From contig JAJFIX010000023.1 of the NCBI GenBank assembly GCA_021774575.1, positions 4,166 to 68,165 on the forward strand: a DNA stretch of 64,000 nucleotides. Reading direction: 5' to 3'. The position numbers and the translations under genes are program-made. Origin of the DNA: Alphaproteobacteria bacterium (GTDB lineage Bacteria; Pseudomonadota; Alphaproteobacteria; UBA6615). The notes beneath the pieces are model-generated. The model was given only the letters and a program-made list of their open reading frames with translations, was not told the origin of the DNA and ran no database searches. Positions 39,856 through 56,723 of the stretch are shown piece by piece (position 1 is the stretch's first letter; every line of letters starts with the position of its first letter).

Positions 39856-39869
39856 TTGATGGATTTTTG

Positions 39870-41072
39870 ATGACCGGAATGGAACGCGCACTTCGATATT
39901 ATCCACCCGGTGACTGGCCCGCCGATCAGGCGTTGGAACATGTCACCCTCGATTTCGATCGACGTCATCGACGCCGGATCCGCCTGGTTTCAGATCGGGA
40001 CAAGCCCTATTTATTAGACCTGGAGAAGGCGGTGGCGATGACCAATGGCGGTGGGTTGGCGCTTGAGGGCGGCGGTTGGTTAGCCGTTCGCTCGGCGGCC
40101 GAACCGTTGCTTGAAATTAGAGCGCGTGACGATGCGCACCGCACCCGCATCGCATGGCATCTTGGTAATCGGCATTTACCGGTGCAAATTTGCGGTGACG
40201 CCTTGCGAATACGCGACGATCATGTGATCGCCGATATGGTGCGCAAACTGGACGGCGACGTTACCGCCTTGGACGCTGCCTTTGATCCCGAGGGCGGCGC
40301 CTATGGGGTCGGTCAGGTGCAAGGTCACAGTCATGGGAATGGGAATGGGAAAGGCCACGACCATTCAGCTGCGGCGGCGCCGACGACTGATGTCCTTTAC
40401 AAGCTTCTGACTTGGGTATCGCCATCCTATCCCATTGGGGCCTACACCTACTCCCATGGGCTCGAATATGCGGTCGAAACCGGCCGCGTGTCTGATTTGA
40501 CCAGTTTGTTTTCCTGGCTCGAGGCGCTTATCGGAAATGGCGGTGCCTGGATCGACGCCGTCATGCTGGCCCGCGCATGGGTTGCTACTAACAGAAGTGA
40601 CGAGCCGAAATTGCTCGAAATTGCCATTTGGGCCGCCGCCTTTCGCGCCACTTCCGAGACGTCACTGGAAGCTATAGCCCAGGGGCGCGCCTTTGCCGAT
40701 GTGACCTGCTCGGTGTGGGATACGCCCGTACTTGGCGCGCTCTGCGAACGCCATGATGGGGCTGTTACCCATCCCGTGGCGATGGGGATCGCCTGCGCAG
40801 AGCATAAGATTGGTCTTGGCGAGGCGTTGAACGCCTATCTTCATGGGTTCCTTGCCAACCTTGTTTCGGCGTCAATCAGGCTGGGAGTTATCGGGCAGAG
40901 TGACGGGCAGATGGCAATTAAAATGGGAGAAAATGTGGTTGCCGAAACAGTGAAGCGAGCCAAAGAAATGTCGGATGGTGAAAATTTTGAAGCTTTGGGG
41001 ACAGGGACGGTAATGGCCGATTGGACATCGATGATGCATGAAAACCAATATTCAAGGCTGTTCCGGTCATGA
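39870..41072 (+). CDS. ureEF: UreE-UreF fusion protein (urease accessory)
   Basis: aa 1-166 are UreE-like (GNRHLPVQI, His-rich tail [14 protein letters not shown]). They run without stop or in-frame start codon into a UreF-like domain ([25 protein letters not shown]...). Single 400-aa ORF. Confidence 0.8.
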
Positions 41073-41704
41073 CTGGCGGATCGAATGGCTTCTCAGGTCC
41101 GCTGCGCGTTGGTATTGGCGGCCCGGTGGGTACGGGAAAGACGGCGCTGGTCGATGCATTATGTAAAGGCTTGCGTGACCGCTATGATATCGCCGCAATC
41201 ACCAACGATATCTACACCCGTGAAGATGCCGAGTTTCTGACCCGGTCCGGTGCGCTTTCCCCCGATCGGATTGCCGGGGTCGAGACCGGCGGGTGTCCCC
41301 ATACGGCAATCCGCGAGGATGCGTCGATCAATCTCCTTGCCATCGCCGATATGAATAAGCGATTTCCCGATTTGGAACTAATTTTTATCGAGTCCGGTGG
41401 CGATAATTTAGCTGCTACTTTTTCGCCCGAACTGGCTGATTTGACGATTTATGTGATCGATGTTTCAGCCGGCGACAAAATTCCGCGTAAAGGCGGACCG
41501 GGTATTACCCGGTCCGACCTGTTGGTCATCAATAAGATCGACCTTGCCCCCCATGTTGGCGCCGACTTAGGTGTCATGGAGAGGGACGCCAAGAAAATGC
41601 GCGGCGACCGTCCCACCCTTTTTGCCAATATCAAAGCGGGCGCCGGGGTTGAAGAAATCGCCGATTTTATCTCAACGACCGGCGGGTTGGGTAATCAAGT
41701 CTGA
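41069..41704 (+). CDS. ureG: urease accessory GTPase UreG
   Basis: P-loop [16 protein letters not shown], and NKIDLAP (NKxD). ATGA overlap with the upstream gene. Confidence 0.9.
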
Positions 41705-41705
41705 G

Positions 41706-42596
41706 TCATGACCCTGAACCCGCACCTTCGATCTTGTCTTGGGTTTTTGTCGCAAAGTCGTCGGCGTCATGGCGTTCGCGAAGCTGTTCTTCGAGTGGGC
41801 CGTTGGCGCGGTTAACCATCCGTCCACGTTGCACGGCTTCCCGCTGCCAAATTTCATCGGCCCATCTGCCCAGGTTTTTGTAAGATGGTGCGTCCAGAAA
41901 TTCTGCCGCGCTGTAAACTTTGTTCAAAATGAGCGCGCCGTACCACGGCCAGATGGCGATGTCGGCAATGGTGTATTCATCACCGCACATATATTGATTG
42001 CCGGCCAAACGACGGTCGAGCAGGTCTAGTTGGCGCTTTACTTCCATGGTAAAACGGTCGATGCAATATTCGATCTTTACCGGGGCGTAGGTATAGAAAT
42101 GGCCAAACCCACCACCAAGATACGGGGTGGCCCCCATTTGCCAGAAAAGCCATGACAAACATTCGGCGCGCAGAGCCGGGTCACTGGGCAAGAACGCGCC
42201 ATGTTTTTCGGCAAGATAAAGCAAGATAGAGCCGGATTCAAAGACACGGGTGGGTGTTGGCGTGCTGTGATCCATCAGTGCCGGAATTTTGGAATTTGGG
42301 TTAATATCGACAAACCCGCTGCCAAATTGCTCGCCATCATCGATGCTGATCCGCCAGGCATCATATTCGGCCTCGCCAATGCCTAACGCCAGCAGCTCTT
42401 CAAGCATTATCGTGACCTTCACGCCGTTCGGCGTTGACAGCGAGTAAAGTTGCAAAGGGTGTTTGCCGACAGGTAGCTCCTGATCGTGAGTAGCACCGGC
42501 AACCGGGCGGTTGATTTTTGCAAACTTACCCCCGTTCTCAGTCCCCATCTCCCATTTCCAGACCTTGGCCGGCTCGTAGGGTAAGTTCGTGTCCAT
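41706..42596 (-). CDS. yghU: Nu-class glutathione S-transferase, YghU-like
   Basis: Collinear with my recollection of E. coli YghU (PAKVWKWE, GGKFAKINRPVAGATH, LPVGKHPLQLYSL, FESGSILLYLAEK, GGGFGHFYTYAPVKIEY, DEYTIADIAIWPW). The ATG at 42596 has GGAG upstream, and 42608 is an alternative. Confidence 0.85.
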   Translation of the reverse strand: MDTNLPYEPAKVWKWEMGTENGGKFAKINRPVAGATHDQELPVGKHPLQLYSLSTPNGVKVTIMLEELLALGIGEAEYDAWRISIDDGEQFGSGFVDINPNSKIPALMDHSTPTPTRVFESGSILLYLAEKHGAFLPSDPALRAECLSWLFWQMGATPYLGGGFGHFYTYAPVKIEYCIDRFTMEVKRQLDLLDRRLAGNQYMCGDEYTIADIAIWPWYGALILNKVYSAAEFLDAPSYKNLGRWADEIWQREAVQRGRMVNRANGPLEEQLRERHDADDFATKTQDKIEGAGSGS

Positions 42597-42819
42597 TTTT
42601 AACTCCATTCCGATTACGCTGGATCATTGTTTGCTCTAGGCGATCATTCTTCCGGGTGTTTTTTACCTGGTGTGATTGACCGAAGCTAGCCCGCAGTCAA
42701 ATTTCAATGACACGCGAGGGGCGGTGCAAGTAGCTTGAGCCGTGCGCGGATTTCGTTCAGGTTCAGGTCAGGTTTATGCGCTATGGATTCTGTCTCCCTA
42801 GGGCGAAAAGGAACGTTTG

Positions 42820-43479
42820 ATGCGGGTTCTGTTAATTGAGGATGACGAGATCCTAGGCCAAGCCGTGCGCGATCAAATTGCTGCCGACGGGCACGCAGTC
42901 GATTGGATGCAGCGATTGGATGATGCCGAAGTGAGCGCGCGCAGCGTGGCCTATGACCTAGTGCTGCTTGACCTATTGCTTCCCGACGGACTCGGGCTTG
43001 ATTTCTTGCAGCAGCGCAGAAAGGCCGGTGACGTGACACCGGTCATTATCCTTACGGCGCGCGACCAGATTTCCGACCGCATTGCCGGGTTGAACGCTGG
43101 GGCCGACGATTACCTGGTCAAACCGTTTGACCTTTCTGAATTGACGGCTCGGGTGGCCGCTGTGGCCAGACGCTACGCCGGCAACCCGAACCCACTTGTC
43201 CACCAGGGGGATCTTGAAATTGATCTGGCGGCCCGTGCGGTATATCGGGCGGGTCAGCTCGCCGATCTGACGGCGCGCGAATGGACGCTCTTGGAAGCCT
43301 TGCTTCAGCGACCGGGGACAATTTTATCCAAGAGCCAACTCGAAGATCGCCTGTATGAATTTGGCGGAGAGGTGGAGAGCAACACGATCGAGGTACATGT
43401 TAGCCGCCTCCGTAAGAAACTGGGACACGACCATATCGAGACTGTGCGCGGCATGGGTTACCGAATGGGGCAAACATGA
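42820..43479 (+). CDS. OmpR-family response regulator
   Basis: Receiver domain (MRVLLIEDD, DLVLLDLLLPDG, KPF) plus a winged-helix output domain (EVHVSRLRKKLG...IETVRGMGYR). Confidence 0.9.
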   Translation: MRVLLIEDDEILGQAVRDQIAADGHAVDWMQRLDDAEVSARSVAYDLVLLDLLLPDGLGLDFLQQRRKAGDVTPVIILTARDQISDRIAGLNAGADDYLVKPFDLSELTARVAAVARRYAGNPNPLVHQGDLEIDLAARAVYRAGQLADLTAREWTLLEALLQRPGTILSKSQLEDRLYEFGGEVESNTIEVHVSRLRKKLGHDHIETVRGMGYRMGQT

Positions 43480-44807
43480 CAAAGTCTCCAAGCCTGCGGC
43501 GCCAACTCAGCATTGGGATTGCTGCGGGGATCAGTTTCATCTGGATCATTGCGACCGTCGCTGCCGGCCTGATCATTCGCCATGAGCTAGACGAACTTTT
43601 TGACAGCGGTCTTCAGGAAACAGCACAACGCATCTTGCCCCTAGCCGTGGTTGATATCTCGAACCGGGAAGGCCCGATCTCGGCGCAGCGTAGCCCGACG
43701 GTCGGAGTGCATGACGAATATCTGACTTATTTGGTCCGCGATCAATCCGGCAATATCTTGTTACAGTCGCATGACTCAGATCCGGCGACCTATCTTGGGG
43801 AACCGGTTTTGGGATTTCGCGATACGGCGACCCATCGTATCTACGGTGAAGCAGCGGTAAGCGGAACGATTATCGTTGAGGTAGCCGAGCCACTGGCACA
43901 TCGACGTGAAGCGACATTTGAAGCGACCCTTGCGTTTGTTGGTCCCCTTCTGCTCCTTCTGCCGATTAGTCTTCTGGGTGTATGGCGGCTCGTTTGGCAG
44001 AGCATGCGCCCGGTGTTGGCATTCCGAACGGAGGTCGAGGCGCGCGGGGGTGGTGATTTGTCGCCTGTTTCTACGGATAAATTATTTTCCGAAATTCGCC
44101 CGATTGGCCAGGCCGTAAACCAACTGATGGATCGACTGCGCAAGTCGCTCGAATCCGAGCGCAGCTTTGCGGCAAACAGCGCCCACGAGCTGCGAACACC
44201 GATTGCAGCGTCCCTTGCCCAAACCCAGCGATTGATTGCTGAGGTTCCGGCGGGACCACTGCACGACCGAGCTGTCCGAATTGAGGCATCGCTACACCAT
44301 CTCGCCTCCTTGTCGGAAAAGCTCTTGCAGCTGGCAAGGGCCGAAGGCGGTGGCCTGCTGTCGGAATCGCGCCAGAATCTCGTATTGGCCCTCGAGCACC
44401 TTGTTGAAGATTTTCGGCAACAGCCGGAGAATCACAATCGTCTCAGCTTGACTGTTCCCATGTCTGGAGCGGCCATGTCGCGTATGGATTTAGACGCCTT
44501 TGCAATATTGGTCCGCAATATTATCGAGAACGCGCTGAAACATGGTAACCCCGACGAACCCATTGATATCAGTTTGTCCGACGATGGAGTGGTGCGTGTG
44601 GTTAACGCCGGTCCGGTGGTGGACGCTGGTTCGTTGGCGCAGCTAAAAAGCCGGTTCGAACGCGGTGGCACACAGGCCGGCGGGACAGGGCTTGGGCTGG
44701 CAATTGCCGACGCTATCGCGACGGGGGCAGGCGGCAGCCTTCTTCTCCTGTCGCCAGCCACGGACAGGCAGGAAGGATTTGAGGTCGTTCTGCAATTGCC
44801 ACAATGA
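43476..44807 (+). CDS. sensor histidine kinase (2 TM, HAMP, HisKA, HATPase_c)
   Basis: H-box FAANSAHELRTPIA, N-box NIIENALKHG, G-boxes GTGLGLAI. ATGA overlap with the regulator. Confidence 0.9.
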   Translation: MTKSPSLRRQLSIGIAAGISFIWIIATVAAGLIIRHELDELFDSGLQETAQRILPLAVVDISNREGPISAQRSPTVGVHDEYLTYLVRDQSGNILLQSHDSDPATYLGEPVLGFRDTATHRIYGEAAVSGTIIVEVAEPLAHRREATFEATLAFVGPLLLLLPISLLGVWRLVWQSMRPVLAFRTEVEARGGGDLSPVSTDKLFSEIRPIGQAVNQLMDRLRKSLESERSFAANSAHELRTPIAASLAQTQRLIAEVPAGPLHDRAVRIEASLHHLASLSEKLLQLARAEGGGLLSESRQNLVLALEHLVEDFRQQPENHNRLSLTVPMSGAAMSRMDLDAFAILVRNIIENALKHGNPDEPIDISLSDDGVVRVVNAGPVVDAGSLAQLKSRFERGGTQAGGTGLGLAIADAIATGAGGSLLLLSPATDRQEGFEVVLQLPQ

Positions 44808-44878
44808 GGTAGCGCGCAAGTCGACGATAGTCGGTGTCTATCTGCGGTCAAATGTATTTATTTTGCTGCCTTAATTTG

Positions 44879-44911
44879 GAACGCCCTCGCCCCTGAGGGG
44901 GCTTCGCGTTC
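44879..44911 (+). terminator. possible GC-rich hairpin downstream of the kinase gene
   Basis: GAACGC-CCTCGCCCC-TGA-GGGGGCTTC-GCGTTC forms outer and inner stems with an internal loop. No clear U-tract. Confidence 0.35.
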
Positions 44912-45088
44912 AAATTCATATCATCTCCAAAAACTAGATTGGCGTCGGGAATATCCCTGTGACCTTGCCGATATTCTACGGCTAACGAAGCAGTTTCGCA
45001 CCTGAATGAAAATAAATTTCTCCGTCAGGTTCCCTTCAGGAAGGGGTGCGATATTGCGGCATCATAATTCAAAATAGGAACTCGACAG

Positions 45089-45550
45089 ATGAAACTGAAA
45101 CTCACGATTGCCGCAATGCTGATGGGCCCTTTAGGGGCTGGCGCTGCTTACGCCGCCGATGATGATTGCTCCGTCCCGCTCGCCGATTGGCAGCCGACTG
45201 ACGCGGTGCAGCAGTTGGCCGATACACAAGGTTGGGACGTACAACAGATCCAGGTTGATTCCGGATGTTACGAAATTAGCGGATTGGACAGGCTAGGCCG
45301 AGCGATCGAGGTAACGTTGAACCCGGCGTCACTCGCGATCGTGGAGATTGGTCATGACGGAGATGACGGCCGTGGAAATGATGACCGTGACGACGATGGT
45401 CGTGACGACGATGGTCGTGACGATGATTTCGATCGCGATGATGATGACGACAACGACGACAATGACAATGATAATGACGACGACAATGACAATGACGACG
45501 ACAATGACAATGACAATGACAATGACGACGACGACGACGACGACGATTAA
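45089..45550 (+). CDS. secreted PepSY-domain protein with 64-aa poly-Asp/Asn/Arg tail
   Basis: Signal MKLKLTIAAMLMGPLGAGAAYA. PepSY-like core (WDVQQIQVDSGCYEISGLDRLGRAIEVTLNPASLAIVEI). The tail DGDDGRGNDDRDDDGRDDDGRDDDFDRDDDDDNDDNDNDNDDDNDNDDDNDNDNDNDDDDDDDD contains 42 Asp in 64 residues by my count. Confidence 0.7.
   Translation: MKLKLTIAAMLMGPLGAGAAYAADDDCSVPLADWQPTDAVQQLADTQGWDVQQIQVDSGCYEISGLDRLGRAIEVTLNPASLAIVEIGHDGDDGRGNDDRDDDGRDDDGRDDDFDRDDDDDNDDNDNDNDDDNDNDDDNDNDNDNDDDDDDDD
45356..45547 (+). repeat. low-complexity GAY/AAY codon tandem repeats (gacaatgac / gacgatggtcgtgac units)
   Basis: Direct reading shows gacgacgatggtcgtgac twice in tandem, then runs of gacaatgac, gacgacgac and similar, encoding the acidic tail. 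Confidence 0.85.
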
Positions 45551-45642
45551 TGCCGTCGCGGTGGTCTGCGATTCGGCACAAAATAGGCATTATCGCATCA
45601 CCGTGTAGCGGTCTTTTCATCGAATGGTTTTGGTGCATTTCC

Positions 45643-45672
45643 GTTGCCTCGCTCACTCCGGAGCGAGGCAAC
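45643..45672. other. perfect 12-bp stem / 6-nt loop hairpin in the intergenic region
   Basis: GTTGCCTCGCTC-ACTCCG-GAGCGAGGCAAC lies between the PepSY gene and the DUF2271 gene. No U-tract. Could be an attenuator or an RNA-stability/processing element. Confidence 0.5.
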
Positions 45673-45803
45673 ACCGGACCTTAACGCCACCGGATTTGCA
45701 ACCTGAACAGACGAGCAAAGCAATTTTCAAATTCCTTTCGGCGTCGCACCGATCTTTAACGTCGAAATGCATCGACGAAACCGTTTTGACTGGAGACCAA
45801 GCC

Positions 45804-46274
45804 ATGAAATCGCCTTTGGCAGCGTTGACCATAGCCACCACACTTGCCTTGCCAAGCCTAGCCATGGCTGGCCCAGTGACCCTCAGCACTGAAATGAATA
45901 GTTACGGTGGTGATGGCGCTTATCTCGTACTTTATGTGACCGATGCGGAGGGTGCTTACATCGGCACGCTCTGGATGTCGGGTGGCAAGTCGAAATATTA
46001 CAGCCATCTCAGTGATTGGACACGTGCATCAGGTGGTAACTTACAGGAAATCAATGGCATTACCGGCGCGAGCGTTGGCGCTGGCGCGACATTGAACGTA
46101 ACGCTGGAACTTGCCGACGCCCTGTTCGAGGCGGGGTACGAGCTGCACATAGATAGCTCGGTTGAGGACATGCGAGACGTTCCGTCAGAGATCGTCGTGC
46201 CCTTAACCGTCGAAGGCGCCGGCCAAGCTGTTACCGGCAGCCGATACATCAAATCCTTCACCTATGACCGGTAG
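45804..46274 (+). CDS. periplasmic DUF2271-like protein carrying an ApbE-type flavinylation motif
   Basis: Signal MKSPLAALTIATTLALPSLAMA. GDGAYLVLYVTDAEGAYIGTLWMSGGKSKYYSHLSDW is DUF2271-like as I recall the family. The NGITGASVG motif (TGAS at 46062-46073) fits the [S/T]GA[S/T] flavinylation site. Confidence 0.65.
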   Translation: MKSPLAALTIATTLALPSLAMAGPVTLSTEMNSYGGDGAYLVLYVTDAEGAYIGTLWMSGGKSKYYSHLSDWTRASGGNLQEINGITGASVGAGATLNVTLELADALFEAGYELHIDSSVEDMRDVPSEIVVPLTVEGAGQAVTGSRYIKSFTYDR

Positions 46275-46299
46275 GAATCTCTAACGAAGGACGGGTATC

Positions 46300-48510
46300 A
46301 TGCTCCGCCGACTTCACAATGTACCGGGTCTGTTTGCCGCCCTCTTTATCAGTGTTTTAGCTCTAAGCGGAGTTGTTCTTGCGATCTATCCGGCAGTGGA
46401 CAGGGCCGAGGCAGTGTCCGTTTCGACGAGCCAGATCAGCGCCCTCGATCTGGCCGTTCGGGTTGTTCAAAACCATCCCCAAGTTGAGCAAATCAGGCAC
46501 ACTGCGTCGGGCAAAGTCATTGTCTTTTATTTCGAGAACGGTCGCTCGGTCTCACTTATCGTTGACCCGGAAAATGGTCAATCCGTAACAGATTACGTGC
46601 CATCGGGGATCGAGCGATGGGTGACCAATTTACACCGCTCCCTCTTTCTGGGCGATGGAGGACGGATAGCGGTGGGAGCGGGAGCGCTGGCACTCTTGTT
46701 GCTGACAATATCGGGATTACAGATGACTGCGCGGCGCATGGGGGGCTGGCACAGGATTTTTCACAGGGCTCGTGGTACGGGGATGCAGCGATTGCATGTT
46801 GACCTGGGAAGGTCGGTGGTGTTCGGCCTTATGTTTTCTTCGGTTACCGCCCTTTATTTGGTGCTCGCGACATTCGAAGTGATCCCAGACGGTATGTCAC
46901 AAGGCCCGGTTTTCCCGAGCGAGGTAAATGGCGGCCCGACAATGCGGGTAGATCAGATCGGAGCCCTACATAGTGTCGGCTTGGCCGAACTGCGTGAGCT
47001 GACGTTTCCCTATCCAGGTGACCTTACCGATGTGTTCAGCATCAAAACGGCCAAGGGGGAGGGCTTTATTGACCAGGCCACGGGGCAGTTTTTGGTGTGG
47101 CAGGATCATGGTCTCGCACTTCGAATTTATGAATTTATTTATATGTTGCATACTGGACAGGGACTGTGGTGGTGGGGCCTAATCCTTGGGGCGACGGTTT
47201 TATTCATTCCAGTAATGGGGCTTACCGGGTTTTTCGTTTGGTGGCGGCGTCGCCATTCTTACCAGCGTCCGAAGCAAAACATTGCCGTGTGCGCGGCCGA
47301 CACAATCATCCTTATCGGCAGCGAAAGTGGAAGCAGTTGGGCCTTCGCTGGTACTCTACACAATGCTCTGACGGCAGCCGGGCATAAAGTGCATTGTGGC
47401 TCATTGAGCAGCTTTAAGTCGGACTATGCGTCGGCCGAACGCATGTTTATTTTGGCCGCGACCCATGGCGATGGCACCGTCCCAGAATCGGCCAAGGGAT
47501 TTCTTTCCCGTGTAAAATTGCTTGCTACACCGCCTCCATTTTCGGTGACCATACTTGGCTTTGGCGATCGTCAGTTCCCTAAATTTTGCCGGTATGCGAA
47601 AGATGTGAGCGAGACCCTGGCTAAAATGGGTTGGAAGACCTTGTTGCCTTTTGCCACCATCGATCGCCAGTCGGCGCAAGAATTCGCGCGCTGGGGGCGG
47701 AACCTGTCGCAGGTCATGGGCGAAAATTTTGCACTGGTGCATAAGCCTATACGCCCCAAATGCACGACCTTGACCCTTCATTCACGCAGTGATTATGGGG
47801 CTGAAACACAAGCGCCCACGGCCATCCTGCGGTTCTTATTGCCAGAGCGCGGACCGGCAGCGCGGCTCATTGGCCGTGCCCTGCCACGTTTTTCCGCCGG
47901 CGATTTGGTCAGTATCTTGCCGCCCAACAGCGATGTGCCGCGGGACTATTCTCTGGCCTCTTCGAGGAATGAAGGGATGCTGGAAATATGCGTGCGCAAG
48001 CATCCTGACGGGTTGTGCTCCACCCATCTGCATGATTTGCAGCCGGGTGATACGACCCAGGCTTTTATCAAACGCAATCTCGGATTTCGGCCAGCTCCGG
48101 GTCGGAAATCGGTGATCTTAATCGGCGCGGGCACGGGTGTGGGTCCGCTGGCGGGCTTTATCCGCGATAACACGTCGCTTCGCCCGATGCATCTATATTT
48201 TGGCGTGCGCGATCGGACTTCGGATTTTCTCTACGGCGACGACTTTGACAAATGGCTAGCCGACAAACGACTGACCAGTCTCAACACAGCCTCCTCGCGC
48301 GCTCCCGACCATAGCTATGTGCAGGACCGCTTGCTGCAAGATGCGGATCATTTGCGCGTCCTGATCGCGAAGGGGGCCCAGATCATGGTTTGCGGCGGGC
48401 GAGATATGGCCGCAGGCGTGTTGGAGGCGCTGAATGACGTTCTGGCTCCGATAGGTATGGAGCCGGCAACACTCAAAATTCAGGGAAGGTATCTTGAAGA
48501 TGTTTACTAA
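46300..48510 (+). CDS. PepSY-associated TM protein fused to flavodoxin-like and FAD/NAD(P)H-binding (sulfite reductase flavoprotein / CPR-like) domains
   Basis: The N-terminal ~330 aa has PepSY_TM-like helices. A flavodoxin-like block follows (TIILIGSESGSSWAFAGTL). The FNR-type motifs RDYSLAS and VILIGAGTGVGPLAGF are present, and the protein ends with the C-terminal YLEDVY. Confidence 0.85.
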   Translation: MLRRLHNVPGLFAALFISVLALSGVVLAIYPAVDRAEAVSVSTSQISALDLAVRVVQNHPQVEQIRHTASGKVIVFYFENGRSVSLIVDPENGQSVTDYVPSGIERWVTNLHRSLFLGDGGRIAVGAGALALLLLTISGLQMTARRMGGWHRIFHRARGTGMQRLHVDLGRSVVFGLMFSSVTALYLVLATFEVIPDGMSQGPVFPSEVNGGPTMRVDQIGALHSVGLAELRELTFPYPGDLTDVFSIKTAKGEGFIDQATGQFLVWQDHGLALRIYEFIYMLHTGQGLWWWGLILGATVLFIPVMGLTGFFVWWRRRHSYQRPKQNIAVCAADTIILIGSESGSSWAFAGTLHNALTAAGHKVHCGSLSSFKSDYASAERMFILAATHGDGTVPESAKGFLSRVKLLATPPPFSVTILGFGDRQFPKFCRYAKDVSETLAKMGWKTLLPFATIDRQSAQEFARWGRNLSQVMGENFALVHKPIRPKCTTLTLHSRSDYGAETQAPTAILRFLLPERGPAARLIGRALPRFSAGDLVSILPPNSDVPRDYSLASSRNEGMLEICVRKHPDGLCSTHLHDLQPGDTTQAFIKRNLGFRPAPGRKSVILIGAGTGVGPLAGFIRDNTSLRPMHLYFGVRDRTSDFLYGDDFDKWLADKRLTSLNTASSRAPDHSYVQDRLLQDADHLRVLIAKGAQIMVCGGRDMAAGVLEALNDVLAPIGMEPATLKIQGRYLEDVY

Positions 48511-48511
48511 C

Positions 48512-49516
48512 ATGAAACGCCACGCATTGAACGGGGAGACGATGGGAACCCGTTGGTTCGTTCTGGTTTATGCCCCAGCGACGACGGATATTGAGGCTCT
48601 TGAGATCGCCCTCGCCGCCGCGGTGGGTCGGGTGGATAATCAAATGTCTACGTGGAAGCTCGATAGCGACCTGATGCGCCTAAACGCGACGCCTCCGGGC
48701 CAATGGATCTCGCTGCCGCCGGAATTGACCTTTGTGTTGGCCAAAGGATTGGAAATTGGACGAGCCTCGGGTGGCGCCTTCGATATTGGACTAGGTGATC
48801 TCGTCAATGCGTGGGGTTTTGGTCCCGCTAGGAATGCACCCGACCCGGCGGCAATTCAGTCCTGCCTTGGTCGGGTACGATCACCGACCCACGAACTTCT
48901 GGAACTCGATAGGGCATCGTGCCGAGCGCGTATGAGTGCGCCGGTGCAGATCGATTTGTCGGGCATTGCCAAAGGTTTCGGCGTGGATGAGATGGTACGG
49001 GTTTTAGAGAGCTTTTCCATTGAAAACGCATTGGTCGGTCTTGACGGCGAACTCAAAGCCTTAGGTGCAAAACCAGGCGGCACGCCTTGGGCGGTGGCGG
49101 TTGAAAAACCTGACTATGACCGTCGGAGTCCGATGGGGGTGGTCGCGCTGCAAAACTCAGCCATCGCAACCTCGGGTGACTATCGCCATTGGGTCGATGT
49201 CGGCGCGACACGTTTGTCCCACACAATGGTGCTGTCGCGCGGCGGTCCGGTAAATAACGCAATAGCCTCGGTGACGGTATTAACCGCGGACTGTGTTGAC
49301 GCCGATGCCTGGGCAACAGCGTTGCTTGTGCTGGGCGAGTCCGAGGGCGCCAAACTTGCCGAAAAAAACAAATTGGAGGCGCTGATCGTCTCTCGAACCA
49401 GCACCGGTCTGCATAAAGTATGTGTCGGCCCGGTATGGCAAGAATCACAGCCAAAGTTAGCTATGCTGGGTACCGTCGTGAGTTCAATGTTGAAGCTCGG
49501 ACGCGCCGAAATTTGA
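48512..49516 (+). CDS. apbE: ApbE-family FAD:protein FMN transferase
   Basis: Contains GETMGTRWFVLVYAP, AFDIGLGDLVNAWGFG, DLSGIAKGFGVD, AIATSGDYRHW and DADAWATAL. I prefer the start at 48512, just after the upstream stop, but TTG 48494 and ATG 48500 are possible. Confidence 0.85.
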   Translation: MKRHALNGETMGTRWFVLVYAPATTDIEALEIALAAAVGRVDNQMSTWKLDSDLMRLNATPPGQWISLPPELTFVLAKGLEIGRASGGAFDIGLGDLVNAWGFGPARNAPDPAAIQSCLGRVRSPTHELLELDRASCRARMSAPVQIDLSGIAKGFGVDEMVRVLESFSIENALVGLDGELKALGAKPGGTPWAVAVEKPDYDRRSPMGVVALQNSAIATSGDYRHWVDVGATRLSHTMVLSRGGPVNNAIASVTVLTADCVDADAWATALLVLGESEGAKLAEKNKLEALIVSRTSTGLHKVCVGPVWQESQPKLAMLGTVVSSMLKLGRAEI

Positions 49517-49641: not shown

Positions 49642-51018
49642 GTGTTCGTGAAGGAATTTTGGACCATACGAGGTTGGGGCTTCGTCGTCGGAGCCTGTGT
49701 TTTTATTTTTGCCGCCCACATGTTTTACGGTGCGAATACGAACGCTTTGTCGATGATATTTGCCGCCGCCGCTTATATCTTGTGCGGTCTCGCATTTGCG
49801 CTGACATTTCGGGTGGAAAGCAACGAATTTTTGGTGCGCCATCGCGTCTTGATGTTGCTGTTTCTATTCATTCTCGTTGCTGGTTTTTTGCAGCTTACGC
49901 CATTTGGAATCGGTGGTCCCCATCCGCTCTGGCTTAACCTTGATGGGCCTTCGGCGGTGACCCTTGACCGGGATGCAACTCAACGCGCGTTGCGCCATTT
50001 CGGCGCTGTGGGAGCGGTATTTCTATTCGGCGCGGCACTGGCTGCCGATTCTCGCCGTGCCCGTCTCTTCTTCCAGGTGCTGATGATAGCAATTGCCGCC
50101 TATTCGATCTGGGCGTTCGCGGCGTTTATGCTGGACACTGGGGCGTTATATGGTGTCGAGCGACCGTACCATCGTGGTCGGCTCGCTGCTAGTTTTCTAT
50201 CGGCCAATAGCGCGGCGACATTGTTTGGGACTTTCGGGGTGCTGGCAATGGCGGAAATTCTTCAAGCGCTTCGATATCGGGACGGGCGCGCCGCAACGCG
50301 CGCCGCAATAATCGAGATCCGCTTGCGTCGCGCGGCTTTGCCCGTAATCGCCCTGGCCTTTGCGATGACGTGCCTAGCATTGACCGCTTCGCGCGCGGGT
50401 ATTGCCGTTTCAGGCGCTGCATTGCTCATCCTCATCGGCTGGGAATTGCTTGGCAATAATCATCGTCGCTTGTCGTGGCGTGTTCCAGCGGCCGTTGCCG
50501 CTATCTCCGCCGGCGCTCTGCTTACTGTCACGATGCTCTCCGGCGAACTTGCGGTATCACGGTTTGGCGAAATCGAGACCACTTTGTCCGGGCGCACCCA
50601 ACTCTTTGAAGCTCATTGGGGGGCATTTAAGCAGGCACCGTGGTCCGGCCAGGGGCTGGGTACGTTTCACGTTATCAATCAATTAATCCAGACTTCAAAT
50701 AACTGGCAAAATCTAAATTTTAGCGGCGCAACCCACAACGTTTTCATCCAAGCGCTGGAGGAAGGCGGCGTTCTTATTGCACTACCGCTATTTGCCTTGG
50801 TCGGCCTCATACTGATCCAAATTTTTTACGGGATCGGGCGCCGTCGGCGCATGGCGGGCCGACTGCGCGCTATATTGATCTTCGGTTTTGTGGTGATTGG
50901 CCATGGGACCGTTGATTACGCACTTGAGGTGCCGTCGATTGCTTTGTATTGGGCTTTGCTGCTGGGAGTAGGGGCTGGTTTGGCCGTGGCACGATCAAAG
51001 TCTAGGTCGCCGCGCTAG
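49642..51018 (+). CDS. O-antigen ligase / polymerase-like (Wzy_C domain) membrane protein, ExoQ-like
   Basis: About 11 predicted TM segments. LALTASRAGIAVSGAALL motif region and a periplasmic loop with GQGLGTF. GTG start with GAGGA upstream. Confidence 0.7.
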   Translation: MFVKEFWTIRGWGFVVGACVFIFAAHMFYGANTNALSMIFAAAAYILCGLAFALTFRVESNEFLVRHRVLMLLFLFILVAGFLQLTPFGIGGPHPLWLNLDGPSAVTLDRDATQRALRHFGAVGAVFLFGAALAADSRRARLFFQVLMIAIAAYSIWAFAAFMLDTGALYGVERPYHRGRLAASFLSANSAATLFGTFGVLAMAEILQALRYRDGRAATRAAIIEIRLRRAALPVIALAFAMTCLALTASRAGIAVSGAALLILIGWELLGNNHRRLSWRVPAAVAAISAGALLTVTMLSGELAVSRFGEIETTLSGRTQLFEAHWGAFKQAPWSGQGLGTFHVINQLIQTSNNWQNLNFSGATHNVFIQALEEGGVLIALPLFALVGLILIQIFYGIGRRRRMAGRLRAILIFGFVVIGHGTVDYALEVPSIALYWALLLGVGAGLAVARSKSRSPR

Positions 51019-51693
51019 TTACCGGCGAGGGACAAAATTTGTTCCCAAAACTTGTTCGATGGCCTCAATCGCGCCGTCCTCGGCTCGCCGGTTTTCAAGG
51101 CGTGCTAGCAGCTCCGTCAGCCAATTGCGACCCCATGCCGTTGTGCCAAAATTACGCAGCGACCGACGTGCAGCTAATTGTAGGTTGTCGTCAAGGTCTT
51201 GCCACAAGCTTAAGGTAAATTCGATTCGCCATTGTTGAAAGGACAGGTTGCCGTAGGGGATGGTATCAAATGAGTGCCGTAATGCATCTTGGCCCATGGA
51301 GCCCAGTCGCCCGGCTTGGATCGTATTGACATAGGCGAGGCGAGCCCAGGCGTCACCTTGTGCAGGGTTGCGAGCTAGACCAGCATAGCTCTCTGTGCGT
51401 ATACGATCAAAATCCAGTGGACGTTCGGTGAGTGCCAGACGGGCGGCCTGATGATGTAATCTTCCGGTTTCGCGTCGGTCGACTAGTAATTCTCGAGCCT
51501 CGGTGAGCGCGGTGGCTCTGGCTATATCTGACGGGGCCTCTGTGGCCCGGGAAAGCGCTGCGTCAACCTTATCGGCCCGAAGATCCCACCGGCCATAGTT
51601 CGCGGTAGAAATTGCGGCGAGAAAACATAGCATGGGTAATACCCAATGCAGCAGGCCAATTAGTGGCCCATTAAATTTCAGTTGCCGCCTCAT
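51019..51693 (-). CDS. hypothetical membrane-anchored protein, translationally coupled to the BY-kinase gene
   Basis: An N-terminal TM (LIGLLHWVLPMLCFLAAI) is followed by an alpha-helical-looking soluble part. ATGA overlap with the upstream stop. I recognise no family. Confidence 0.55.
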   Translation of the reverse strand: MRRQLKFNGPLIGLLHWVLPMLCFLAAISTANYGRWDLRADKVDAALSRATEAPSDIARATALTEARELLVDRRETGRLHHQAARLALTERPLDFDRIRTESYAGLARNPAQGDAWARLAYVNTIQAGRLGSMGQDALRHSFDTIPYGNLSFQQWRIEFTLSLWQDLDDNLQLAARRSLRNFGTTAWGRNWLTELLARLENRRAEDGAIEAIEQVLGTNFVPRR

Positions 51694-53993
51694 CCTTCGG
51701 CATAATAGTTTTTATAACTATTGTAGAAATATCCGGTATCGCCATTTCCGTATCTTCCCTGTGCGTCCATATCGACAAGGCTCAAGGCAACGCCGGCAAT
51801 CGGAGCGTGGGCGGCGGTTAAGATGTCGACCGCCGATTTGACTGCTTTGCGGTGAGTCTTATTCCATCGCGCCAACATGATTACGGCGTCAGCGGTGGCG
51901 GCGAGAGTACGGGTTTCTGTGACCGCCAACAACGGCGCCGTATCGATGACAATAAAATCGTAGCGCGTTCGCAATTGCGCCTGCAGCGATTGCATTTGGT
52001 CGGATCCAAAGACATCCCGCGGCGTCTGATGCGCTGACGCAACCGGAAGAATATCAAGGCCGGTTTTTGGGTCGGTGATCAGGGCATTGTCCAATGGAAT
52101 TTCGCCGGCAAGGACTTCCAGCAGTCCAAACTTGCGTTGCTCACCTATATTTTGGGTGAGGATATGTCGACGTAAGTCGCAGTCGAGCAAGATGGTCTTT
52201 GCCCCGAGCAACTGAGATATCTGGGCCAAACAGTGTGCCGCAGCGGTCTTGCCCTCGTTCGGCAGAGCCGAGGTTACGATAACTGTTTTTGTTTCCCGGT
52301 CTAGATTGGAATAGGTGACTGAGGCGCGCAGCGCCCGGAATGCCTCTGCAAAACCCGAGAGTGGGACTTCAGCAATATAGTCGGCCGGTTGGCGTCCACT
52401 GGCACGCTCCTTCGGCAATTTGGGGATAGAGGTTAACAACGGCATGCCAAGTTCGCGTTCGACGTCTTCTGCTCCACGTAACCCTGTTTCCAGCATTTCG
52501 GCGATGAAAACGGCGCTCGTGCCCGCCATGCCAGCAAGCATGAGAGCCAGCAAACCGGCGAGACTCAAGCTCGGGAAACTCGGATTTATCGGAATTGATG
52601 CCCGAGAAATGATGCGGGCATCGGCTTGTTGGAGGCTCGCAGCCTCGTTGGTTTGCTTGAAACGGGTTAGGAAGGAATCATACAATGCGCGGTCGGTCTC
52701 TGCCTCGCGCTGCAGTTCACGCAACCTTACCATCGCCGTGTTGTTGCGAATTAACTCGCCGCGCTGGTTTTCAACGCTTGACTCAAGAGAGGATAATTGT
52801 TGACGGGCGACACTAACTTCACTTTCCAGCCCGGAGACGATCCGCCTGATTTCACGATTGAGCGCCGTTCCCAAGTCGGCAATTTCGCGCTGAACCCGTT
52901 GTATTTCCGGGTGTCGATCGCCATAACGGCTCGACAAATCTGCTTTTTCACGCAGAACTTCCGATTGCTGATTGCGCAAATCTCGAACGACGTCTGATGA
53001 CAGGACTTCAATGACCGCTTCGCCATTGCCGCCACCGCTGAGCTGGCGGCGCGCGGCGGCTAACCGTGCTTCGCGCTCGGTAAGGTCAGCCCGCAATATG
53101 ATCAATTGCCCGTTTAAATCGATGATTTGTTGTTGGGTTAGTGTGGTTCCATTGGCATCAAGCAGGCCTTCTTCGGCGCGATAGAGTTCAACGGCGCGTT
53201 CGCCAGCTTGAACGCGCTCAGCTAGGTTGCCGAGCCGGTCGCTAAGCCAATTATTGGCGAGTTCAGTCGCCTCGAATTGGGCCTCCAACTGGTCGACGAG
53301 ATAGAGATCCGCCAGCCCGTTGGCCAGCAGGGCAGCCTGTTCTGAACGTTCGCTTTTAACCGAGACCAGGATGACATGAGTGAGGCCTGATCGCCTGACC
53401 TCCACCGCATTGCGTAGCGTATTGATCGTTGATTCGCGCTCGGTCCGCAGCATATCTTCTGGTGTTTGGAGCTGTTGCGCTTCTGATGGCACCAGGGCGC
53501 GCAGCAATCCGAAAACGGCTGAGCCGGCGTTGCGAATCCAGGACAGGGGACCATTGCTCTCATCGCTAACTTGGCTATTCCATTCGCCATCTGCCATCAA
53601 ATCAAGGTCCTCAACCAACCGTGCGGCCAGGGCGTGGGACCCAATAATTTGAACTTCTGTATCGACCACCGCCGAGTCCGGTGGCAAGCCGGAAAGCACC
53701 GATTCGATATCGACAACCTGCTGCTGTCGCGGGTCAACGATGAGTTCGACGGTGCCCGTATATATCGGCGTCAACTGTAGAATGATCAATATGGCGAGTG
53801 AAAAGACTGCACCTGAAACGATCGCGGCCAGAGTTAAACGGCGACGCGCGATTGCTATGAGCTGGTGCAAATCGATGAAATTTGGAACAGCTGACGGCAT
53901 CGACGAGTAACTATTGGCCGGTTCGGTTGTGCCCGATACACCGGCGGCTTCTCGATTGACTGGCTGTTGGCTCATCGGGCGCCTATCTGTCAT
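51690..53993 (-). CDS. polysaccharide co-polymerase / tyrosine autokinase (Wzc/ExoP/GumC family)
   Basis: Wzz-like N-domain with a long coiled-coil periplasmic region and a second TM. Walker A VTSALPNEGKT, Walker B-like FIVIDTAP, and the Tyr-rich tail GRYGNGDTGYFYNSYKNYYAEG. Confidence 0.9.
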   Translation of the reverse strand: MTDRRPMSQQPVNREAAGVSGTTEPANSYSSMPSAVPNFIDLHQLIAIARRRLTLAAIVSGAVFSLAILIILQLTPIYTGTVELIVDPRQQQVVDIESVLSGLPPDSAVVDTEVQIIGSHALAARLVEDLDLMADGEWNSQVSDESNGPLSWIRNAGSAVFGLLRALVPSEAQQLQTPEDMLRTERESTINTLRNAVEVRRSGLTHVILVSVKSERSEQAALLANGLADLYLVDQLEAQFEATELANNWLSDRLGNLAERVQAGERAVELYRAEEGLLDANGTTLTQQQIIDLNGQLIILRADLTEREARLAAARRQLSGGGNGEAVIEVLSSDVVRDLRNQQSEVLREKADLSSRYGDRHPEIQRVQREIADLGTALNREIRRIVSGLESEVSVARQQLSSLESSVENQRGELIRNNTAMVRLRELQREAETDRALYDSFLTRFKQTNEAASLQQADARIISRASIPINPSFPSLSLAGLLALMLAGMAGTSAVFIAEMLETGLRGAEDVERELGMPLLTSIPKLPKERASGRQPADYIAEVPLSGFAEAFRALRASVTYSNLDRETKTVIVTSALPNEGKTAAAHCLAQISQLLGAKTILLDCDLRRHILTQNIGEQRKFGLLEVLAGEIPLDNALITDPKTGLDILPVASAHQTPRDVFGSDQMQSLQAQLRTRYDFIVIDTAPLLAVTETRTLAATADAVIMLARWNKTHRKAVKSAVDILTAAHAPIAGVALSLVDMDAQGRYGNGDTGYFYNSYKNYYAEG

Positions 53994-54047
53994 TCGACCG
54001 ACGCATGGCCGTAAAATTAGTGGGGGAGCTAATCAAATTAGTGGAAA

Positions 54048-55616
54048 TTATAGTTTTAAAATCACCGAAAGGAGCAGGCTGTTGACCTGATGATCGGCGC
54101 CGGATAGGGCTCCGGTGGAGTTGCGTTTGGAAAAATTATACGAGGCGCCGATTTCCGTATTGCGGTTTATTAGATACTTCACACCTGTGTTCAAATTGTA
54201 ATTTATATCGTCACGATCGACGGCATCGAATTCCTCGAGAGAATAGCCAATGCCGCCGCTTATAATGAGGTTGCGTAGTAGCTCATGATCGGCATTCAGG
54301 TTCGCGTTTGTAACAAAAATACCGCCCGAACCTGGAACGCCGGAATCGGAAATTTCGCGGGAGATATTAAACGCGACGGTCGTCAATCCGGTGGGAAACC
54401 ACTCGACACCGCCACGTGCCGTGAATCCGTTCATATTGCCCAGAGACGCGCCTTCGAAGCGCTGGCTGGTATAGCCAACGGACAACTCGCCCCGTACCAA
54501 ATTTGAAATATCGAAGGTCGATCCGACGAGGATTTCATAACCCCATGAATCACGATCAAGGGGAACCGTCGGTGGTTGCAAATCGTAAGACCGCTCGTTC
54601 CAACCCAAATCGACGAAAACGGATGTATCGGGACTGACCGCATATTCGTTGCGCAGTCCTGCGGAAAGGACATAACGATCTCGGTCGTCCTGGTCGACCG
54701 CCACACCGGTGCTTGTCACCCCATCGTCATAATTATAGGTCATGAATTCAAAACGCCCGGCAAAACGTAAGCGATTGAGTTCCTGGGATGCTGCGGCGTA
54801 GGCGGTAAGTGTGTCAAATTCGGTCGGTTCGATGGTGCCGCCAGCGGAACTCGATGACGATCGCGCTTCATGGGTGAGGTCATAGCGGATACCCGCGCCC
54901 ACTGCTGTGGTGCTTGATACGTCTACCTCTCCGTCGGCAAAAAACCCATAGTCCAAATGGCTTTCATCATCGAAATCAAAGAAATGAGCATAGTCGGTGT
55001 AGGCCCCAGCTTTGAGCGAATGGCGAGACCACATTGACGCAATATCGATTTTCGGGCTGATCGTCAGGATGACGTCCCCCTCTTCGCCAAAATCGGTGGC
55101 GAAGATATTGTCATTGAATTCAAGGTCGGTGGTCAGAGACGGGTCCAGCATGAAAGAGGAAATGCGAAGACCCTTTTGGTCGAAGGCGGGGCGAGTCCGT
55201 TCGGCAACACTAACGTTGCGCGACGGGTCGCTACCGTTTGATTCAGCCCCGCGCCTTGGCCCTGCACTCTGTGCGACAATATAATTTCTCGGCCTCGATG
55301 TTGGCACAGCAACGCCGCTGCCGAGAACATGGGTATCTGCGTCGGCGGATACGGTATTTGCACTATCTGCTGTGGCGGCTTCTGCTTCGATGGCAGTGTC
55401 AGCATCTGAAACGGGCACTGTACGGGGCTGCTCAGGGGATTCGATTGACGCTACAGTAGCGCCGTCCACTTCATGCATCGCCTTATATGCCGGGTGATCG
55501 TACCAGGTTCCGCGAAAAATTTCCGCAGAGGCGGAGGCCGACAGGCCAGATATTCCAACGGCAGCCACACAAAACCCGGTCGCTAAACCAAATCCAATCA
55601 AACATTTGTCACGCAT
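54048..55616 (-). CDS. putative outer-membrane beta-barrel protein associated with polysaccharide export
   Basis: Signal MRDKCLIGFGLATGFCVAAVGISGLSASASA. The C-terminal ~380 aa has alternating-residue beta-strand patterns with aromatic girdles (e.g. IGASYNFSKRNS, NSLLLSVILKL). The family assignment (BBP2/OmpL-like) is an inference. Confidence 0.6.
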   Translation of the reverse strand: MRDKCLIGFGLATGFCVAAVGISGLSASASAEIFRGTWYDHPAYKAMHEVDGATVASIESPEQPRTVPVSDADTAIEAEAATADSANTVSADADTHVLGSGVAVPTSRPRNYIVAQSAGPRRGAESNGSDPSRNVSVAERTRPAFDQKGLRISSFMLDPSLTTDLEFNDNIFATDFGEEGDVILTISPKIDIASMWSRHSLKAGAYTDYAHFFDFDDESHLDYGFFADGEVDVSSTTAVGAGIRYDLTHEARSSSSSAGGTIEPTEFDTLTAYAAASQELNRLRFAGRFEFMTYNYDDGVTSTGVAVDQDDRDRYVLSAGLRNEYAVSPDTSVFVDLGWNERSYDLQPPTVPLDRDSWGYEILVGSTFDISNLVRGELSVGYTSQRFEGASLGNMNGFTARGGVEWFPTGLTTVAFNISREISDSGVPGSGGIFVTNANLNADHELLRNLIISGGIGYSLEEFDAVDRDDINYNLNTGVKYLINRNTEIGASYNFSKRNSTGALSGADHQVNSLLLSVILKL

Positions 55617-56600: not shown

Positions 56601-56723
56601 CTGCGTTCCCTTCGGTCACTACGATGAGCCAGAATTCCTCTCTTATGCAATACCGCTAATCTGTTCCATAGGCGCTGACGTCAAACAGTATGTTTCCGGT
56701 CATGTATTTCAGCATAACAATAT

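Follow-up and report, generated by a model that had tools for sequence, protein, structure and literature searches.

Architecture of the gene cluster

We analyzed a 64,000-nucleotide stretch of an alphaproteobacterial genome (GenBank assembly GCA_021774575.1, contig JAJFIX010000023.1, positions 4,166 to 68,165 of the forward strand), referred to here as the window and numbered from its first nucleotide, with a focus on a cluster of six genes that probably encodes a path for electrons from cytoplasmic NADPH to a secreted flavoprotein. All six genes lie on the plus strand. The first two encode a two-component system (TCS), made up of an OmpR-family response regulator (RR; 42817/42820-43479; Pfam Response_reg, 3e-23, and Trans_reg_C, 1e-22) and a sensor histidine kinase (HK; 43476-44807; HATPase_c, HisKA, HAMP and, weakly, 2CSK_N). 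They are followed by genes for a small PepSY_2 protein of 153 amino acids (45089-45550; PepSY_2, 6e-23), a DUF2271 protein (open reading frame 45624-46274, preferred start 45804; DUF2271, 1.5e-32), a 736-amino-acid protein in which a PepSY_TM module is fused to flavodoxin-like and ferredoxin–NADP+ reductase (FNR)-like domains (46300-48510; PepSY_TM, 2e-32 over residues 3-317; Flavodoxin_1, 5e-11; FAD_binding_6, 3e-5; NAD_binding_1, 3e-11), and an ApbE protein (48494/48500-49516; ApbE, 4e-75). The Pfam E-values in the cluster range from 3e-5, for the short FAD_binding_6 piece, to 4e-75; chance matches are far weaker.

The start of the HK gene overlaps the stop of the RR gene, and the start of the ApbE gene overlaps the stop of the gene for the 736-amino-acid protein. 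Spacers of 281 bp, 253 bp and 25 bp separate HK from PepSY_2, PepSY_2 from DUF2271, and DUF2271 from the 736-amino-acid gene, respectively. The cluster is flanked on one side by a glutathione S-transferase-like gene (41706-42608, minus strand) and on the other by a Wzy-type polysaccharide gene (49642-51018). All six genes named in a preliminary description of this DNA were recovered in place by our open-reading-frame and Pfam searches, as were its sequence motifs: TGAS at 46062-46073 (inside NGITGAS, 46053-46073) in the DUF2271 gene, and RDYSLAS at residue 548 and GAGTGVGP at residue 609 of the 736-amino-acid protein. For comparison we searched 80 loci with the six window proteins; the loci come from Alpha-, Beta- and Gammaproteobacteria and were taken from species-representative genomes.

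A predicted di-haem membrane module fused to a diflavin reductase

The N-terminal PepSY_TM module of the 736-amino-acid protein (46300..47250, plus strand) comprises four predicted transmembrane (TM) helices and two periplasmic alpha/beta domains. Hydropathy placed the helices at residues 11-29, 123-141, 173-195 and 295-313, and an AlphaFold 2 (AF2) model of the protein (mean pLDDT 80) placed them at residues 9-35, 118-147, 161-191 and 290-320. In the model the alpha/beta domains occupy residues 48-98 and 221-269, within the long loops, and are followed by a flavodoxin fold and then an FNR fold. Because the density of lysine plus arginine was 0.20–0.23 in the N terminus, the TM2–TM3 loop and the stretch after TM4 but 0.05–0.09 in the two long loops, we assigned the long loops to the periplasm and everything past residue ~314 to the cytoplasm. 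A periplasmic location of the flavodoxin and FNR domains, which the preliminary description had named as incompatible with its proposed electron-transfer chain, is the opposite of what this positive-inside bias indicates for both domains.

Exactly four histidines of the membrane module were invariant in an alignment of 25 homologues (52–66% identity): H6 (codon 46315-46317), H112 (46633-46635), H166 (46795-46797) and H284 (47149-47151, all plus strand), of which two lie at cytoplasmic and two at periplasmic helix ends. The same layout is known from the reductase FoxB, which spans the membrane with four TM helices, bears two PepSY domains on the periplasmic side and binds two b-haems through conserved histidines at the edges of the bilayer (10.1101/2021.01.28.428567; PMC11334425); both the four-TM, two-domain arrangement and the paired edge histidines, here predicted haem ligands, are found in the 736-amino-acid protein. 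FoxB (PDB 7ABW) was also the sole solved structure matched by the sequence of the N-terminal module, a weak match (E 0.06) whose alignment covers the histidine-bearing motifs LH(R) and LHTG. A Foldseek search with the whole AF2 model was dominated by matches of the cytochrome P450 reductase (CPR) type and yielded no independent match between the N-terminal module and FoxB. Judged by its conserved histidines, the membrane carrier is very probably a FoxB-like di-haem b cytochrome. The preliminary description had correctly recognized PepSY-type TM helices in this carrier, but was incomplete in not including the di-haem cytochrome that the four invariant histidines predict.

PepSY_TM proteins were once annotated as siderophore permeases (PMC7190382), and such an activity for this module is, to our minds, very improbable, as is a chain running in reverse with periplasmic electrons passing inward to NADP+. 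FoxB is a di-haem reductase with four conserved histidines, all four of which are invariant here (10.1101/2021.01.28.428567), and a four-helix bundle whose interior is filled with haem offers no obvious path for transport; passing electrons from a periplasmic flavin to NADP+ would be uphill, with no evident driving force. FoxB, FsrB, VciB, HiuB and CrpH, PepSY_TM metal reductases to which the layout of helices, periplasmic domains and haem-binding histidines is common, are stand-alone proteins whose electron donor is unknown, whereas in the 736-amino-acid protein a donor module of flavodoxin plus FNR is fused to the membrane module, and a DUF2271 partner with a flavinylation motif is encoded alongside.

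The donor module consists of a flavodoxin-like, FMN-type domain (47299..47718, plus strand; Flavodoxin_1 at residues 337-459) and an FNR-type domain for FAD and NADPH (47764..48510, plus strand; FAD_binding_6 and NAD_binding_1) that ends in EDVY. In the 25-sequence alignment the FMN loops GSE(G/S)GS(T/S)W, T-x-GDG and FGDRQF were conserved, and RxYS, GxGxxP, FSR...Y and the terminal aromatic residue were invariant or nearly so; the window protein has the corresponding motifs GSESGSSW, THGDG, FGDRQF, RDYS, GAGTGVGP, SSR...Y and a terminal Y. In CPR and FNR, the residues of FSR...Y contact the 2'-phosphate of NADPH, and because the residues of the 736-amino-acid family match these contacts we infer a preference for NADPH.

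Profile searches identified CPR, CysJ and the reductase modules of P450 BM3 and nitric oxide synthase (NOS) as the closest solved relatives of the cytoplasmic module, with matches to CPR, CysJ and the BM3 reductase reaching 1e-44, and CPR and CysJ were likewise the top Foldseek matches. These diflavin reductases use the NADPH-to-FAD-to-FMN relay that we propose for the 736-amino-acid protein, and its binding motifs are conserved there. The connecting domain of CPR and CysJ (FAD_binding_1) was not found in the 736-amino-acid protein, for which Pfam instead gives FAD_binding_6; because the flavodoxin and FNR matches are only ~55 residues apart, there is no room for it. An identity as CysJ itself was ruled out by the NCBIfam CysJ model (147 bits versus a cut-off of 668). 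Similar logic is known from the eukaryotic NOX/FRE ferric reductases, in which electrons pass from cytoplasmic NADPH through flavin and two membrane haems to an outside acceptor, although their ferric-reductase domain belongs to a fold family unrelated to the membrane domain described here.

A Sec-exported DUF2271 protein carries the only canonical flavinylation motif

The DUF2271 open reading frame can be read from 45624, but the true start is almost certainly the ATG at 45804, which yields a periplasmic protein of 156 amino acids (45804..46274, plus strand) with a Sec signal at approximately residues 1-22. This ATG has a GGAG 9 nt upstream, is shared with the starts of orthologues and agrees with an independent gene call; the longer frame was rejected on these same grounds and because its first 60 residues are unconserved. 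A Sec-type leader of the form MK..LALTTALT..LA.A|RP, with an AxA site, was present in 80/80 DUF2271 orthologues from related loci. Export of a pre-flavinylated protein through the Tat pathway was rejected, the twin-arginine motif being found in 0/80 leaders.

Across an alignment of 80 DUF2271 orthologues the segment G-[ILV]-[TS]-G-A-S-V-G was invariant or nearly so. Its final serine, the predicted acceptor encoded at 46071-46073 (plus strand) in the window, was present in all 80. The one pair for which flavinylation of DUF2271 by its cognate ApbE is documented comes from A. ursilacus; its ApbE bears a signal peptide, and a T-to-A mutation in the motif abolishes the modification (PMC8238504). 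Among the six proteins of the cluster, DUF2271 alone carries a canonical [ST]GA[ST] site. A relaxed pattern yielded one further candidate, which we rejected: it matched only SGSS in the flavodoxin P-loop of the 736-amino-acid window protein, where most relatives have GGST or GNST.

The locus belongs to the PepSY-like flavinylation systems

Gene sets of this kind have been catalogued as "PepSY-like" flavinylation systems, with 3220 clusters counted across 3040 genomes (Méheust et al., 2021, eLife, PMC8238504). Of these clusters, 2833 contain DUF2271 and 1500 contain DUF4198, and 1077 PepSY-like genes include an NAD-binding domain; a cytosolic NAD(P)H donor and a role in iron reduction were proposed for the systems, an association with VIT1 was noted (PMC8238504), and a structural comparison with FoxB followed (Huang et al., 2024, PMC11334425). 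The class is delimited by a PF03929/PF16357 protein at most five genes from ApbE, DUF2271, FMN_bind or DUF3570, with a signal peptide in at least one of them. In the window the PepSY_TM match (2e-32) has both DUF2271 and ApbE as adjacent genes, and DUF2271 has a Sec-type leader; the locus is an ordinary member of the described class. The preliminary description, which called the theme "partly described," understated this: the class is named and counted, and flavinylation of DUF2271 has been shown experimentally (PMC8238504).

The window shares with the published systems (PMC8238504; PMC11334425) the PepSY_TM protein, the secreted DUF2271 protein with [S/T]GA[S/T], and ApbE. It differs from them in lacking DUF4198, in having a TCS and a small PepSY_2 protein attached, and in that the ApbE of the cluster is leaderless. 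We found neither the tie to a TCS and PepSY_2 nor the leaderless ApbE discussed in PMC8238504, leaving aside its supplementary PepSY sheet, or in PMC11334425.

The cluster ApbE lacks an export signal

No signal peptide, lipobox or hydrophobic N terminus was found in the window ApbE or in ~60 cluster-linked orthologues. The window frame opens among the final codons of the reductase gene, with no upstream extension possible, and residue 17 is the first residue of the Pfam match. The N terminus, M(F/S)T..(K/R)RHALNG.TMGT, corresponds to the first residues of crystallized ApbEs from which the leader had been truncated; residue 11 of the window protein aligns with residue 9 of the leader-truncated Vibrio cholerae construct. 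We considered upstream starts for the orthologues, but the longer frames in five loci (L001, L002, L058, L065 and L072) proved to be read-through of the overlapping frame and were not hydrophobic. When 1.8 billion cluster representatives were searched exhaustively, the ~35 closest ApbE families (at least 43% identity, 302–338 amino acids) all turned out to be leaderless, whereas most families at 41% identity or less had lipoprotein leaders ending in a lipobox cysteine. By sequence, the leaderless proteins form a distinct clade beside the usual lipoprotein ApbEs. The same family search returned a 750-amino-acid protein (P0213) whose ApbE domain, at residues 468-745, lies behind a long N-terminal part and which may be a fusion. 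The statement in the preliminary description that the cluster ApbE is periplasmic is contradicted by these sequences.

The cluster ApbE looks like an active transferase, because alignment to 6NXI/6NXJ showed that it keeps both the catalytic histidine (V. cholerae H257), in RLSHTMV, and the aromatic residue that stacks on the flavin, a tryptophan in QMSTWK. The simple picture of flavinylation in the periplasm does not fit a leaderless ApbE whose sole canonical target in the cluster is exported by Sec. Three readings of the mismatch are possible: DUF2271 may be flavinylated before export; ApbE may have a cytoplasmic substrate or role while another ApbE serves DUF2271; or ApbE may leave the cytoplasm by a route that has not been described.

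Cytoplasmic ApbEs are known, only with cytoplasmic targets (PMC12052999). The cytoplasmic ApbE of Klebsiella pneumoniae resembles that of the window in having no signal peptide and intact transferase residues, but its target is a cytoplasmic fumarate reductase, whereas the sole motif-bearing protein of the window cluster is Sec-exported (PMC12052999). We advance only tentatively, as less probable than not, the proposal that in this widespread subfamily the flavin is attached in the cytoplasm, with the leaderless ApbE, synthesized along with the reductase, modifying the DUF2271 precursor ahead of Sec, or else acting on a cytoplasmic substrate in the reductase. If flavinylation does precede export, the translocon carries a chain modified with phospho-FMN, and the cell need not supply FAD to the periplasm. 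Either cytoplasmic reading, if true, would revise the view that flavinylation follows export and is carried out by a lipoprotein ApbE.

A rival reading, in which the leaderless ApbE does not act on DUF2271 at all but has a cytoplasmic target or role (such as attaching or supplying the FMN of the flavodoxin domain, or FAD pyrophosphatase activity) while another, exported ApbE serves DUF2271, strikes us as distinctly unlikely. The absence of a leader throughout the clade, the overlap of the gene start with the reductase stop, the Klebsiella precedent and the finding that flavodoxin-type domains can become ApbE substrates (PMC11334425) would all suit it, as would nine loci, all from Halomonas or Oceanospirillales-type Gammaproteobacteria, that keep DUF2271 with its motif but have no ApbE in the cluster, so that another ApbE can presumably serve it there. 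Against this reading, the only canonical [ST]GA[ST] site is in DUF2271; the flavodoxin loop, GSE(G/S)(G/N)(S/A)(T/S)W, is an ordinary phosphate-binding loop in which the motif is absent from most members; and ApbE and DUF2271 co-occur across genomes (PMC8238504). An FAD pyrophosphatase of the Ftp type is itself unlikely, since the stacking position holds tryptophan rather than the asparagine of those enzymes and the transferase histidine is conserved (PMC4767422). We accordingly retain DUF2271 as the favored substrate of the cluster ApbE.

A conserved direct repeat links the two-component system to the reductase operon

The nearest NCBIfam models for the RR were PmrA and QseB, both under their cut-offs, within the subgroup PmrA/BasR/QseB/BqsR; its best PDB match was BasR (164 bits), compared with 99 bits for the CarR/BqsR receiver. 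The HK has TM segments at residues 15-33 and 151-169 and between them a periplasmic domain of ~115 amino acids. The sensing motif known for PmrAB or BqsRS is ExxE or RExxE; in the window domain we found no clear ExxE pair, and its conserved motifs are FDSALEETAQRILPLA, Y.VRD, THR.Y and AEPL.HR. Orthology to PmrAB or BqsRS was rejected, the scores being 216 bits versus a cut-off of 330 for PmrA and 117 versus 314 for PmrB, and by these comparisons the window TCS is placed in a related subfamily only.

The regions upstream of PepSY_2 in relatives have in common a direct repeat with 11-bp periodicity, KTCAGG-N5-KTCAGG. The window contains two exact copies in its 64 kb, both in promoter regions of the cluster: TTCAGG-N5-GTCAGG (42756..42772, plus strand), 45 bp upstream of the RR gene, and GTCAGG-N5-TTCAGG (45024..45040, plus strand), 49 bp upstream of the PepSY_2 start. 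Allowing at most one mismatch gave 3 copies in the window, against 0.67 expected. In 1.44 Mb of related loci there were 70 exact copies, where ~0.7 would be expected from base composition, and 67 of the 70 lie no more than 260 bp upstream of PepSY_2 (31), DUF2271 (18) or the RR gene (18). The divergent intergenic region of many relatives contains the repeat twice, the two copies being inverted with respect to each other. The boxes of PmrA/BasR (CTTAAG-type) and BqsR (TTAAG-N6-TTAAG, PMC13522522) have the same architecture, a direct repeat of 11 bp, and CTTAAGG half-sites occur in some relatives' upstream regions.

This distribution makes KTCAGG-N5-KTCAGG the probable operator of the cluster RR. 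Because the repeat falls almost only in the promoter regions of RR, PepSY_2 and DUF2271, it also ties the TCS to the operon, and there is good comparative evidence that the TCS autoregulates and controls the reductase operon. Control by the adjacent OmpR/HK pair, which the preliminary description had suggested, is thus supported by the comparison of promoter regions.

PepSY_2 orthologues have a signal peptide, the motif ADDDDC...DDGCYE, two conserved cysteines and an acidic tail of varying length. The tail of the window protein (45356-45547, residues ~90-153) consists of ~60 residues that are nearly all aspartate or asparagine (DDGRDDD...DNDNDNDDDDDDDD). The acidic tail is shorter in orthologues, most of which add a C-terminal NGLF..G..P.V.VQ that is absent from the window protein. 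It is speculation that the Asp/Asn tail suits cation binding.

A small secreted protein of the PepSY clan beside an OmpR-type RR and an HK is also found in DbfQRS of V. cholerae and BqsPQRS/CarSR of Pseudomonas aeruginosa. The window PepSY_2 gene directly follows the HK gene and so falls within the four-gene distance used for DbfQRS-type modules. DbfQ, a small periplasmic PepSY protein, binds the sensor domain of DbfS, and DbfQRS responds to membrane perturbation (PMC12714742); in modules of this type the PepSY protein sets the kinase/phosphatase balance of the HK. By analogy, PepSY_2 is probably an accessory of the kinase and would act on the HK sensor domain. The window differs from DbfQRS and BqsPQRS in that its small protein is a PepSY_2 (PF13670) with an acidic tail and its regulated neighbor is a reductase operon.

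Two RNA hairpins are predicted in the PepSY_2-DUF2271 spacer (45552..45670, plus strand; z-score -4.9 versus shuffles for the fold of 45551-45720). The first is followed by a short U-run, CUUUUC, and a terminator-like site lies at 45600-45612. Acting as a partial terminator or a processing site, these hairpins may determine how much PepSY_2 is made relative to the downstream proteins.

Conservation, neighbors and mobility of the module

At a threshold of E ≤ 1e-10 the databases hold >1400 relatives of the 736-amino-acid protein. The top 120 are nearly all 733–741 amino acids long and are mostly annotated as "PepSY domain-containing protein" or "sulfite reductase flavoprotein," and the nearest named relatives are Alphaproteobacteria. 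Of the 80 loci, 79 have DUF2271. The other components were counted in the 66 loci whose flanking sequence sufficed on both sides; the TCS occurs in 55 of these, PepSY_2 in 57 and ApbE in 57. RR and HK are divergent from PepSY_2-DUF2271-reductase-ApbE in 61/65 loci, the co-directional order of the window being rare.

VIT1, of an Fe/Mn transporter family, was the most recurrent extra neighbor (10 loci, and also on Klebsiella and Rhizobium plasmids). In ~10 relatives (L015, L022, L025, L026, L028, L030, L034, L038, L049 and L077) a cytochrome b561 gene (PF01292, weak DUF4405), encoding a second membrane di-haem protein, lies between PepSY_2 and DUF2271. Cation P-type ATPases, RND pumps and an EF-hand protein are minority neighbors. 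Other candidate conserved neighbor families were rejected as shadow open reading frames of the six genes, leaving VIT1, cytochrome b561, P-type ATPase and RND, each in a minority of loci.

The module is also found on plasmids of Rhizobium, Paraburkholderia, Pseudosulfitobacter and others. TCS, PepSY, DUF2271 and reductase occur together on the plasmids of L082, L084, L085 and ~99 PLSDB records, many of which, the K. pneumoniae NDM-1 plasmid pNDM1_085031 (L082) among them, are conjugative. On pNDM1_085031 the module has no ApbE, its flanking genes are a ferric-reductase-like gene and VIT1, and IS and Tn3 elements mark its borders.

A model for electron transfer to the periplasm

We propose that the locus is a self-contained module for moving electrons across the membrane in response to a signal, in which the FAD of the C-terminal FNR domain in the 736-amino-acid protein takes electrons from NADPH and passes them to FMN in the flavodoxin domain. 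Electrons would then cross the membrane through two bis-His b-haems, ligated by H6 and H166 on the cytoplasmic side and by H112 and H284 on the periplasmic side, and pass to FMN covalently bound to the conserved serine of secreted DUF2271. From DUF2271 they would go on to an acceptor in the periplasm, Fe(III) or an Fe(III) chelate being the most likely. FMN would be attached to DUF2271 by ApbE, the product of the last gene of the operon; translation of this gene is probably coupled to that of the reductase gene, because its start overlaps the reductase stop. The PmrA/BqsR-like TCS would activate its own operon and the PepSY_2-DUF2271-reductase-ApbE operon through the KTCAGG-N5-KTCAGG boxes, with periplasmic PepSY_2 acting on the kinase sensor domain as DbfQ does on DbfS. 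We infer the order in which the carriers act, the nature of the acceptor, the direction in which regulation works and the compartment of flavinylation, and regard the overall model (NADPH, FAD, FMN, two haems, FMN-DUF2271 and a periplasmic acceptor, under the adjacent TCS) as probable. The chain set out in the preliminary description, from cytoplasmic NAD(P)H through a TM carrier to periplasmic DUF2271, agrees with the domain order, the topology and the conserved motif.

Iron is most likely the terminal acceptor, because of the VIT1 neighbors, of data from Caulobacter and of the ferric reductases among characterized PepSY_TM proteins. In Caulobacter crescentus, as in the window, one operon (CC_3059-3063 / CCNA_03155-03159) combines DUF2271, ApbE, a PepSY-family membrane protein and a 'sulfite reductase (NADPH) flavoprotein'. 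That operon is Fur-repressed and is induced 12- to 50-fold by iron limitation, and transposon insertions in it lower fitness in EDTA (PMC3751524; 10.1101/2024.10.16.618771). It is also unlike the window locus in including DUF4198 and in being regulated by Fur, where the window has the TCS boxes.

Several observations, in addition to the mismatch between ApbE and DUF2271, weigh against this model and its iron acceptor. Neither a Fur box nor an Irr (ICE) box was found near the cluster, and no iron transporter, TonB receptor or DUF4198 gene was found in or beside the locus. Some PepSY_TM proteins, the CrpH subfamily, are tied to copper and oxidase function (PMC13038864), and the P-type ATPase, EF-hand and cytochrome b561 genes of relatives do not point uniquely to iron. 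Apart from the cytochrome b561 genes, these observations, together with the RND pumps found nearby in relatives, would suit the same machinery working on another acceptor, such as Cu(II) or a different metal or metalloid, an oxidant that is organic or quinone-like, or a periplasmic protein that has been damaged, with a TCS that reports envelope or metal stress instead of iron supply. So would the sensing of membrane perturbation by DbfQRS and the existence of PepSY proteins with acidic regions that bind uranium and iron and adjoin TCSs (UipA, cited in PMC12714742). Set against these are the prominence of VIT1 among the extra neighbors, the link to iron of Caulobacter's system, the sole DUF2271/PepSY system with genetic data, and the fact that FoxB, FsrB, VciB and HiuB are ferric or ferrisiderophore reductases. 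On balance we judge a different acceptor to be unlikely, though still a serious contender, and keep iron as the preferred one.

Other features of the window

Directly downstream of the cluster lies an exopolysaccharide locus (49642-59160) with genes for a Wzy-type polymerase/ligase, a Wzz/GNVR tyrosine-kinase-type co-polymerase, a BBP2_2 beta-barrel porin and a Bac_transf priming transferase, within which the G+C content drops to 0.48–0.51 at 54–58 kb. Upstream, a 401-amino-acid open reading frame with UreE_N, UreE_C and UreF domains (39867-41072), an apparent urease accessory fusion, is followed by ureG (41069-41704). A 3443-amino-acid open reading frame of DUF11, DUF7507 and CARDB repeats (20460-30791) encodes a giant surface or adhesin-like protein.

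Implications

The earlier reconstruction of this locus is essentially the published model, and the locus is therefore a further example of a class already catalogued in 2021, which matters little alone. The parts of interest to specialists are the mismatch between ApbE and DUF2271 and the operator-defined link of a PepSY-plus-TCS module to a reductase operon. The combination of a leaderless ApbE with a Sec-exported substrate, consistent across the clade, raises the questions of where flavinylation occurs and how FAD reaches ApbE, which are unresolved in the field (PMC12052999). A reductase operon with its own regulator and a recognizable operator is a direct handle on the physiological signal and on the acceptor. 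Finally, the fused donor module provides what stand-alone PepSY_TM reductases such as FoxB, FsrB and CrpH still lack, an electron donor, and the family is therefore a good in vitro system in which to follow the complete route of electrons from NADPH to the periplasm.

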